From a virus (taxonomy: Duplodnaviria > Heunggongvirae > Uroviricota > Caudoviricetes): 26,099 nucleotides of DNA. This document shows positions 15,001 through 18,000 of this stretch, piece after piece; position 1 is the stretch's first letter; every line of letters starts with the position of its first letter. Location: the IMG/VR virus record IMGVR_UViG_2526164602_000011, positions 1 to 26,099 of that record. The stretch is one strand, 5' to 3'. The position numbers were made by a program.

Positions 15001-18000
15001 GCTGTGACTGTGCTTCCGGCGTCACTTCCTGTTGTGGGCGAATGACTTCTCGTATTGCCTGAAACTGTTGTTCTTCAGTCTCGGTGCGCCCCTCTTTCTG
15101 GCTGAGTCTGCGGTATTCCTCAAGCAGTTCAGAACGCGGCTTCGCCTTCAGCTCATTCATCACAGCCTGTCGCTTCGTCTGTTCGTCCAGTTCATTCAAC
15201 AACTGGCTGGCAGCTTCCCGGCGATGAGCTGCGGATGCGTCACCCTCTGTTGCCATATCCGCATCAGCATACTGCTCCAGAAGCTGCTCGCGATTCATGC
15301 CCTGCATGGATTCACGCTGCTGCGCCACCGGATCAACAGATTCTGGTTGCGGGGCTGCGTCGTCCTGCTGCACGGTTTCAGCATCACGCATGGCGGTTTC
15401 TTCTGCGGCCTGACGTCTGCCACGATATCCGGCAACCGCACCGAATGGAGCCCCCATCGCAGCACCAAAGGCTGCACCTTCGATCGTTGCGTCAGCCACG
15501 CCCTCCCACGGTGACACACCCATTCCGGCGGTCTCACGCAATGCCGTGTTTTCCTGATAGCGTGAATAGCCGCCCTGCGCCGCATTAATCGCCCCCTGTT
15601 CCGTGGCATTTCTGACAATGCCGCTTTTAACGGTCTTCGCTGTGCCTCGTGTCACCAGATTAAACAGTTGTGCGTCACCCAGTTTTGCCGCCATGGCATT
15701 CACAGCCAGCAATTCAGGATCGGTTGCCAGCTGCGCGCGCACCTCATCGGCAACACGCTCTTTTGCCAGATCCATTTTCTGGCGATCAGTAAGCTGTGCG
15801 TGCTGCGGGTCGGCGTCAATGGACAAAAACGTCTGCTGAAATTTCGGTGACTGCGCCAGCTCAGAGTAATCAGCATTAAGAACAGCATCTGCTGCCGCCA
15901 TTGCACTCTGCCCCTGTGCACTTACAGTGGAATGGGTGATCAGGCCCGCCTGGAATAAATCCGGCATTTTTTTATCGACAGCTTCTGCTGCCAGTGCCGT
16001 GGCTCTTTCCGGCTGCATCCCTGCCGCGATGTATTTTTTCTCCAGCCCGGCGGTCAGCATTTTTCGCAGTGTGACATCACCCACCTTTCTAGCCACACCG
16101 CCAGCAACCATATCAGGTACAAGCGCACCAATCAGGTTTACACCCTTCGCCACCCAGACCGCAGAATCATTATAGCCTTCGGTCATCGGCGTATTCAGCG
16201 CACGAACTGCACCCGGCGACATCTTACCGGTCAGCCATTCATCAGTGGCTTTGGCACCATCACTGACAGCCTTACCGGTTGCCTTCAGACCTTTACCGAC
16301 AATATCAGTAACCGCGTTTTTGCCATCAGGCAGGGTATCGATGACCTCATCAGCCCCCCTGCTGCCACCGGCAAAAATATCCTGCACAGTTGCGACACCC
16401 GGCAGCCCCATACGGCTGAACTCATTTAAAATACGCGCCCCTGTTTTTACCGGGCTCTGAATCATCGCATCACCGAGTCCACGGGCCATTTCCCCTGTTC
16501 CCCGGACGGACTGGGCGAAACCTTTACCCATTGTTGGCAATACATCGCCCAGGCTGAACGACGTACTGTTATCCTTCCAGCGATTCGGATCAGAGAAAAA
16601 TGCTTCATAGCTGTCAGTTTCGCCGGGTTGCTGAATGTTCAGGCTGTTACGATTCTGGTTACCGAGTTGCGCCTCAGGACGCTGTTCCTCTGAATAGGCC
16701 ATACAGACTCCATAAAAAAACCCGGCACAATGGCCGGGCATCAGGAAATGGTATTAATGGAATATCGTGAATTACTGGGCGTAATTCTGTTTCAGTCCAC
16801 GGATAAACTGAGATGCAGATGAAGCACTTTCATCTCTGGCCTGTTCCCCCCTGGCCTTTTGAATACGGAGAAAATTCGCATACCCGTTCTCCAGCAATTT
16901 CTGATTCTGAGGTTCCAGCATTTCAGGCTGACGGGCCGCTACATTTCTGGCAAATGACAGCTTGTCAGGATCATCTCCCGCCCAGTTGATAACCTGTTGC
17001 TGAAGTTTTTGTTGCTGAATTTTCTGTTGATGCGGTTGTGAACCAGTCGCAGCATAATATTCATCCACCGCAGCCTGAGCATTACCGCCATTCTTGATCG
17101 CGTCCGCCGCTACGTTGCTGGCCCCCTTCTGAAGCTCTTTCAGAGAAAGTCCCTGCTGCTTCGGCATAAAATAACCATAATTTTTCGATATCTCTGCAAA
17201 TTTGCTGCGATCCCTGACCTGAGCGATAGCCTTATCAACGGGTATCGCCAGCACGGTTTGATCATCAGGGTGCGCACTGCCGTATTCTGTTACAGGTTTA
17301 TGCGCGGTGGAGCCATCGCTGTATGTGAGATCAAGGCCAATAAGTACGTACCCTTCCTGCTGCGCTGGTACGATACTGCCAATCCTGGCCTCTTTTATCG
17401 TTTTGTCCCCGGTTGAATCAGGCATGCCAATACGCTGTTGTAGTTCCGGGGCAAACACGCCGGAAAGCACATCGAGATTTTCCGGGGTATTCAGCGAATC
17501 GATCGCCATGTCCGGCTTATCACCAAAGATTTTTTGCAGGTTGATCACGGCCTGACCCGCTTTCGCTGCATAGCCTTCGTTTGACATAAGAATTAATGGA
17601 TGTCCCTTTGGCAGCTGCCCGAACAGACGCGTTGCAGCCTCCTGATCGCCAGCCTCAATTGCTTTTCCAAGCGCTTCCATTAGTGGCTGGCTATGGGCAA
17701 TCATATCGTTATACTCAAGCCGTCGCTGGTTGTATTTCTGCAACTGGAGTCGCTGCTGCTCCATACCCAGTGACGCATTCCGGTAATTCTGGTTAGCGTT
17801 AAACTCCCTCTCCTTCAGTGCATAATTACGGTCGTCAACTTTGGCTCTGTAATCAAAGTTCCGCTGATCAACGTTTTTATTATGTTCAAACTGAGACTGC
17901 GCAAACTCAAAATCGCGCTCGTTATTTTTCTGTTGCCGGGCAAGCTGTGCTTCACGCAGACCAAGCTCCTTACGACGGGTCATTGCCTGGTCAACGGTGC

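Follow-up and report, generated by a model that had tools for sequence, protein, structure and literature searches.

The window analyzed here, a stretch of 26,099 nucleotides, is part of the late region of the Stx2-converting phage 933W: a 1-kb stretch around the hairpin considered below shows 100% identity to 933W (AF125520 / NC_000924), and many other Stx phages are also 100% identical over it. The matched stretch is the reverse complement of the 933W record, and the late genes therefore lie on the minus strand of the window. Two of them frame the site of interest. The first, p71 (933W L0133 / ST933Wp71; 16772..18037, minus strand), encodes 421 aa and is apparent from the ORF list, the RefSeq annotation and a match to PHROG 601 (E = 1.6e-213); it is a conserved late gene of unassigned function whose TAA stop occupies 16774-16772 on the minus strand, and its homologues sit upstream of the giant gene in distant relatives too. 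The second, which we refer to as the giant gene (933W L0134 / ST933Wp72; 8321..16702, minus strand; RefSeq), is the largest gene of Stx phages, 8.4 kb in length, and its 2793-aa product carries LPD5, LPD1, MuF_C and LPD38 domains (Pfam), placing it among large polyvalent-type proteins. Its orthologue in phage phi24B, gp47, was detected in purified virions by proteomics and described as abundant there, and a function as an encapsidated ejection protein has been suggested for it (preprint 10.64898/2026.04.10.717836). The spacer between p71 and the giant gene measures 70 nt in 933W and contains a hairpin followed by a run of seven T residues (T7).

The hairpin (16720..16739, minus strand), delimited by its sequence, its fold, a consensus scan and compensatory changes in relatives, lies 33 nt past the p71 stop, in an intergenic position and on the same strand as the late genes. 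Its 5′ arm GCCCGGC (16739-16733) and 3′ arm GCCGGGT (16726-16720) enclose a 6-nt loop, CATTGT (16732-16727), and pair into a GC-rich stem of 7 bp (6 G-C and 1 G-U). The T7 tract (16714..16720, minus strand), a U-tract in the RNA, begins with a T that can pair with G16739. It is followed in order by A, T, GGAG, TCTGT and ATG 16702-16700, with the Shine-Dalgarno (SD) sequence GGAG (16708..16711, minus strand; annotated as the RBS in KU238068) 3 nt past the T-tract, a further 5 nt (TCTGT) from GGAG to the ATG, and ATG 16702 coming 11 nt after the T-tract ends. Folded on its own, the hairpin reaches -13.1 kcal/mol; the 101-nt region around it has a z-score of -2.74 versus shuffles, and the consensus scan calls a terminator on the minus strand at this site, with G-C in 6 of its 7 pairs. 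Under strict criteria (a T-run of at least 6, with one hairpin of -10 kcal/mol or lower before it), 5 sites are found in the window, compared with 0.55 +/- 0.76 in 60 dinucleotide shuffles; at T>=7 and a dG of -13 or below, the giant-gene hairpin is the only such site in the window, against a shuffle mean of 0.08. Stem-loop, uninterrupted T-tract, intergenic position on the transcribed strand and covariation, by which intrinsic terminators are recognized, are thus all present, and by these features the hairpin and T-tract appear to form a genuine intrinsic (Rho-independent) terminator-type element of typical E. coli anatomy. An earlier note on this DNA had placed a hairpin and U-tract between the stop of the 421-aa gene and the giant gene, with GGAG and ATG 16702 some 11 nt after the U-tract; the former is borne out by sequence, fold, scan and shuffles, and coordinates and spacing are right for the latter.

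We also considered a conditional attenuator or riboswitch-type leader, and rejected it on three observations: the site folds into a plain hairpin and shows no stable structure that would compete with it, the window matched only sok and the lambda cIII thermoregulator when scanned against Rfam at gathering thresholds, with no family at the hairpin, and the 5′ flank of the hairpin is not conserved across clades.

Two in-frame ATG codons lie close to this element. The upstream one (16739..16741, minus strand) is the giant-gene start in RefSeq NC_000924, where position 49025 of the 933W record equals window position 16741. The downstream one (16700..16702, minus strand) is favored both by annotations, since Sakai, KU238068 and PGAP-annotated genomes place the start at the equivalent of 16702, and by conservation of the N-terminus: in Pectobacterium, Brenneria, Symbiopectobacterium and Yersinia, homologues can be aligned starting with Met1 and share the pattern MAY..QRPE.Q..N.NR..LNIQQPGE. 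Among related Stx phages the ATG at 16741 is changed to ATA or ACG, whereas GGAGTCTGTATGGC is invariant, and TGGAG is invariant in a cross-genus MAFFT alignment (A3). For this loss, and because no SD sequence stands before it, ATG 16741 was rejected as a start; codons 2-7 in frame from it are the hairpin itself. Given the cross-genus conservation from Met1 and the loss of the 16741 ATG in relatives, the comparison indicates that ATG 16702 is the real start of the giant gene, and the earlier note's choice of ATG 16702 with GGAG is upheld by the Met1 conservation across genera. Its description of ATG 16741 as buried in the hairpin stem was overstated, as the codon lies next to the stem and contributes to it just its G (16739), in a G-U pair. 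With the true start now fixed, the start given for 933W in RefSeq is 13 codons too early.

Two routes of expression had been put forward for the giant gene: read-through or antitermination at the hairpin, or a promoter of its own. A sigma-70 scan found no promoter-like site near or downstream of the hairpin, nor in the 11 nt before the ATG, and no sigma-70-like promoter from 19437 to 16739 in 933W. The second route was accordingly discarded, 11 nt being too little room and no promoter-like site lying downstream of the hairpin. Since no promoter fits between the T-tract and the ATG, the giant gene must, as far as the sequence can be read, be transcribed by polymerase that passes through the hairpin. 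The read-through or antitermination route is favored in addition by Q, pR′ and qut upstream, and by qPCR data in which giant-gene expression is linked to induction. Q-type antiterminators block terminator-hairpin formation as well as pausing and give near-complete read-through over tens of kilobases, and the overriding of internal terminators by Q is textbook lambdoid biology. The Q gene of 933W is recognized by a match to PF06530 (E = 1.4e-50); pR′, qut and tR′ are annotated at 20666-20957 of the 933W record, ~28 kb upstream of the giant gene; and all CDS from Q to the giant gene, bor excepted, lie on one strand.

Published data support this route indirectly. Sy et al. 2020 (PMC7547250) describe Q-dependent read-through from PR′ into the late genes. 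When phi24B lysogens were assayed by qPCR, CM7, the counterpart of the giant gene (an 8-kb gene 97% identical to 933W NP_049532), responds significantly to induction, while lom (CM18) is equally expressed with and without induction, a contrast that surprised the authors (Riley et al. 2012, PMC3342100). Here, lom lies upstream of the giant gene on the same strand, and terminators between the two that are passed only by Q-modified polymerase would explain the contrast. The presence of the phi24B orthologue in purified virions implies, in turn, that polymerase gets past the terminator in lytic growth.

On the same strand, the late operon holds at least nine terminator-like hairpins of comparable kind: a pair at tR′ and single ones after the tRNAs, stx2B, the portal gene, the major head gene, p55, lom and p67. 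Those nearest to the giant-gene site in this series lie directly after lom (20297..20315, minus strand) and between p67 and p68 (19437..19456, minus strand; p68 start per RefSeq), and both are called by the consensus scan and the strict scan. Because similar hairpins punctuate the whole late operon, the giant-gene terminator belongs, by these scans, to a series and is no unique device. We note that lom thus has its own terminator and that a second follows p67; with these in place, and with no sigma-70-like promoter from 19437 to 16739, the need for a third barrier to insulate the giant gene is not obvious.

Like the Q-tR′ terminators of lambda, 82 and 21 and the pR′-tR′ (StxS) terminators of 933W, the giant-gene terminator consists of a GC hairpin and a U-tract on the coding strand, downstream of Q and pR′/qut, and in common with Q-antiterminated lambdoid terminators it would be expected to halt unmodified polymerase but not polymerase modified by Q. 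It differs from tR′ in lying ~28 kb from pR′, whereas tR′ follows pR′ immediately, and in its products: StxS and lambda 6S RNA are stable products of tR′ terminators, and none is known from the giant-gene terminator.

The same series of hairpins, some of them directly after the portal and major head genes, could also be taken for a kind of transcriptional staircase, in which a fixed fraction of Q-modified polymerase stops at the giant-gene hairpin, less giant-gene mRNA is made than mRNA of the upstream structural genes, and virion stoichiometry is set as a result. Strong conservation of the hairpin element fits such a role, and phage T7 provides a parallel: its terminator T-phi, located after the major capsid gene, is partially efficient and sets relative transcript levels. 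Both T-phi and the giant-gene site are intercistronic intrinsic terminators in a long late transcription unit, before genes needed in lower amounts. However, T7 RNA polymerase works without a Q-like modification, and partial termination, measured at T-phi, is hypothetical at the giant-gene site. We consider such dosage attenuation unlikely, given that Q-type antitermination is normally near complete over these distances (tens of kilobases), that no sequence feature marks the hairpin as Q-resistant, that the distance from T-tract to RBS differs between clades, and that virions reportedly contain the giant protein in abundance (preprint 10.64898/2026.04.10.717836). The earlier suggestion of a special control point for the dose of a costly protein is left unsupported by the same observations, namely a late operon full of such hairpins, a variable RBS spacing and an abundant virion protein.

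Conservation of the element was followed in relatives taken from phage records and viral contigs and, for each species, from a single genome. They gave 33 distinct upstream variants, from viral contigs and from genomes of Escherichia, Pectobacterium, Brenneria, Symbiopectobacterium and Yersinia. In all of these (33/33) the giant gene is preceded by a hairpin and a T-tract of 5-10 nt, which end 17-31 nt before the ATG in 30 of the 33; applied to random same-strand 150-nt windows from the same loci, the same test was positive in 6.4%. In the three apparent exceptions (L115, L116 and L130), a hairpin with a T7 run is found further upstream and is followed by a second terminator, and an insertion of ~130 nt with a very stable long hairpin lies between the terminators and the ATG. 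The stems themselves are unrelated from clade to clade, with at least 10 such stems in the same position across genera (for example GCCCGGC/GCCGGGT, GCCCGAC/GTCGGGC, AAGCCTCGC/GCGGGGCTT, AGCCCC/GGGGCT, AGCCTCA/TGAGGCT, CCGC/GCGG and ACCGAGT/ACTCGGT). Because MAFFT could not place stems of unequal length in common columns of the cross-genus alignment, hairpins were scored per sequence and pair counts were restricted to the alignable Escherichia-type set, in which 2 of the 7 stem pairs are altered on both sides yet still paired. Together, the unrelated stems and the compensatory changes argue that structure and T-tract are under selection, and that the sequence is not.

This pattern weighs heavily on the idea that the terminator is a passive relic, inherited with an ancient module junction (a recombination boundary), now functionless and merely tolerated. 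Mosaic breakpoints located exactly between the p71 stop and the hairpin would suit such an origin. The stems, however, have been replaced repeatedly with pairing and T-tract kept, compensatory changes are present, and protein identity between clades is only 27-58%, a divergence at which neutral decay would have erased the structure; we regard a relic as very improbable.

Features between the T-tract and the gene bear on a function of the hairpin in the read-through transcript, and not mainly as a terminator. It might shield the processed p68-p71 message from 3′ exonucleases, or else act on the 5′ edge of the giant-gene mRNA to stabilize or modulate it (for instance through Hfq on the U-tract next to the RBS). 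The hairpin stands 3 nt from the SD sequence in the Escherichia clade, the leader TGCCTAAATTCTGGAGT is conserved in the other clade, and L115-type phages carry an extra, very stable hairpin directly before the SD sequence, all of which would be in keeping with action on RNA. On the other hand, a pure stabilizer hairpin needs no T-tract, and a long uninterrupted one is present in all variants; the spacing from T-tract to SD sequence is not conserved, at 3 nt, ~15 nt or >130 nt; and Table S2 of PMC4104026, compiled under lysogenic conditions, lists no orphan Hfq-CRAC peak for the Sakai site. In our assessment, an RNA-level role of this sort has a small probability.

Smaller still is the probability we attach to the hairpin being the 3′ end of an sRNA, or of a 3′-UTR-derived RNA, arising from the end of p71 or from a conserved 25-nt block, ACGCGCTAAATTCCCCAAAGATACC, that precedes the hairpin in one large clade. 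The block's position ahead of the hairpin would suit an sRNA, as would the fact that many EHEC prophage sRNAs are short and terminate in comparable hairpins. It is, however, most simply a remnant of the last codons of p71 (AAT TAC GCG CAG TAA), and its alternative reading as a promoter was rejected for want of a consistent -35 element. Moreover, Table S2 of PMC4104026, which covers lysogenic conditions only, has no entry for an Hfq-bound orphan RNA at Sakai ~1,295,95x-1,296,01x, and the site has neither an upstream promoter-like site nor an Rfam match. Three points led us to set the sRNA candidate aside: the sRNA HnrS is located in other prophages, the EcOnc table holds no peak at the site, and no promoter-like site lies upstream.

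The spacer from the p71 stop to the hairpin (16740..16771, minus strand) is the point at which homology breaks and at which cargo and insertion sequences are found in relatives. Across the family, the gene order p68-p69-p70-p71, variable slot, terminator, giant gene is kept, with a slot of ~30 nt in 933W and of 0-2.2 kb in relatives, where the cargo includes a Gp49/HTH toxin-antitoxin pair, a UPF0257 protein gene and several unknown ORFs. E. coli O111:H8 strain 8B carries IS1203 exactly between the p71 stop and the hairpin, and in divergent Stx phages homology breaks or resumes at ~16760-16763. Whether p71, IS1203, the toxin-antitoxin pair, UPF0257 or opposite-strand ORFs stand upstream, the terminator always travels with the giant gene. 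In many relatives the cargo of the slot is on the opposite strand; such cargo would not transcribe into the giant gene, which speaks against an insulator role.

Lambdoid moron cassettes, of which lom and bor are examples, are reportedly promoter-gene-terminator units (an account attributed to Juhala and colleagues, 2000). The giant-gene terminator resembles them in lying at the downstream edge of an accessory-gene insertion site, and lom in the window has a terminator of this kind. Unlike in such cassettes, the gene before the terminator in 933W is the conserved core gene p71, without a promoter of its own. A moron would call for a same-strand accessory gene, driven by its own promoter, immediately before the terminator; the gene in that position is p71, which is conserved in the family, and no promoter-like site was found. 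Because p71 is a core gene without a promoter and slot cargo in relatives often runs in the other direction, the terminator is best assigned to the giant-gene junction and not to a moron.

Taken together, these observations make it probable that the element is a conserved but ordinary intrinsic terminator that acts as a boundary or insulator before the giant gene, stopping unmodified polymerase in the lysogen and being overridden by Q in lytic growth. Under this model, when unmodified RNA polymerase arrives from upstream, be it from constitutive moron promoters (e.g., that of lom), from promoters of slot cargo or from spurious promoters, the hairpin would form and the transcript would be released at the U-tract. 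Termination would thereby keep the 8.4-kb giant gene silent in the lysogen. After induction, Q would be loaded at pR′/qut, ~28 kb upstream, and render polymerase resistant to hairpin-dependent termination; the modified polymerase would then pass the giant-gene hairpin along with the other terminators of the late operon and yield giant-gene mRNA, as lambdoid biology and the published expression data lead one to expect, and translation would begin at ATG 16702 via GGAG. What the sequences show is the anatomy of the site, its start codon, the selection on its structure, a stretch too short for a downstream promoter, and Q, pR′ and qut upstream; how efficiently polymerase terminates or reads through is inferred, and so is the insulator role, an evolutionary argument.

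A more ambitious and rather improbable version would see the terminator, U-tract and leader as a gate dedicated, throughout the family, to the gene of the giant ejection protein. Such a gate might be a partly Q-resistant dose setter, or might have an Hfq-type host or phage factor bound at the U-tract by the RBS; by insulating the gene, it would also let cargo, toxin-antitoxin pairs and IS elements land safely and accumulate just upstream.

Returning to the probable role as an ordinary boundary terminator, the site reveals no new mechanism. The 933W record holds no annotation for it and our literature search found no paper describing it, and its cross-genus conservation beside a cargo slot appears to be unreported. 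Insulation offers an explanation for the silence of the giant gene in lysogens despite a constitutive lom upstream on the same strand, and the conserved junction of cargo slot and terminator makes a useful landmark when Stx phages and related phages are annotated or engineered.

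The RefSeq record of phage 933W (NC_000924) begins the giant coding sequence at record position 49025, which corresponds to the ATG at 16739-16741 (-) in the window. We reject this ATG as the start of the giant gene in favour of the one at 16702, 13 codons further 3', which is the true start. The RefSeq ATG is not kept in relatives, which carry ATA or ACG at this position, and the terminator hairpin forms the codons that follow it. By coordinate arithmetic, position 1 of the window maps about 4 kb past where the linear 933W record ends, and the window therefore reaches beyond that record. 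One of the collected loci (L050; NZ_JPLE01000183.1, 801 bp), from a Xanthomonas pisi assembly, encodes an N-terminus of the giant protein that matches its counterpart from E. coli Stx phages at 95% identity, and is most likely a contaminant in that assembly.

Strong same-strand terminator-like hairpins also follow lom, p67, the portal gene, the major head gene and p55 in the 933W late operon, and none of these five is annotated in the 933W record. Same-strand hairpins of this kind lie at 20297-20315 and 19437-19456 (-) in the window, and at 13931-13954, 16334-16351 and 16774-16792 (+) in locus L132. On the plus strand, terminator-like hairpins are listed for the lom–p67 gap (19909-20339) at 19934-19957 and 19783-19806, and two high-quality examples, each with a T6 tract, are found at 25125-25145 (-15.6 kcal/mol) and at about 450-471 (-12.1 kcal/mol). 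The former is antisense to the late genes and adjoins the start of the p62 gene on its upstream side.

EcOnc36, an Hfq-bound orphan RNA antisense within the giant gene (Sakai 1301433-1301515 (-); Tree et al. 2014), converts arithmetically to about 11210-11292 (+) in the window, subject to possible offsets between genome versions. EcOnc53, an Hfq-CRAC peak at Sakai 1292386-1292438 (-) that was negative by northern blot, falls at about 20287-20339 (+), antisense and directly past the lom stop. Rfam matches the sok antitoxin RNA at 6982-7156 (+), with 113.5 bits, and at 926-984 (+) the lambda cIII thermoregulator, with 88.5 bits.

The short stretch that separates the p71 stop from the terminator (16740-16771 (-)) is an insertion hotspot. 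In E. coli O111:H8 strain 8B it is occupied by IS1203, in Pectobacterium fontis by a Gp49/HTH toxin–antitoxin pair, in another relative by a gene for a UPF0257 protein, and elsewhere by several unknown ORFs, mostly on the opposite strand (cargo coordinates L133:1233-2446, L051:745-1351, L113:1368-2081 and L120:1415-2822). On the 5' side of the hairpin, a block of about 25 nt, ACGCGCTAAATTCCCCAAAGATACC, is conserved (L051, L052, L053, L055, L109, L110, L117, L120, L121 and L125); it starts abruptly at the cargo end, resembles the final codons of E. coli p71 (AAT TAC GCG CAG TAA), and is probably a leftover of the ancestral p71 3' end.

In three viral contigs, L115 (2755-2990), L116 and L130, the terminator is doubled in tandem, and an insert of about 130 nt lies directly 5' of a new giant-gene SD. 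This insert, which has no Rfam match, holds a long, near-perfect hairpin of 85 nt (-45 kcal/mol, z = -4.8); a MITE-like element is one possibility for it, and a processing site another.
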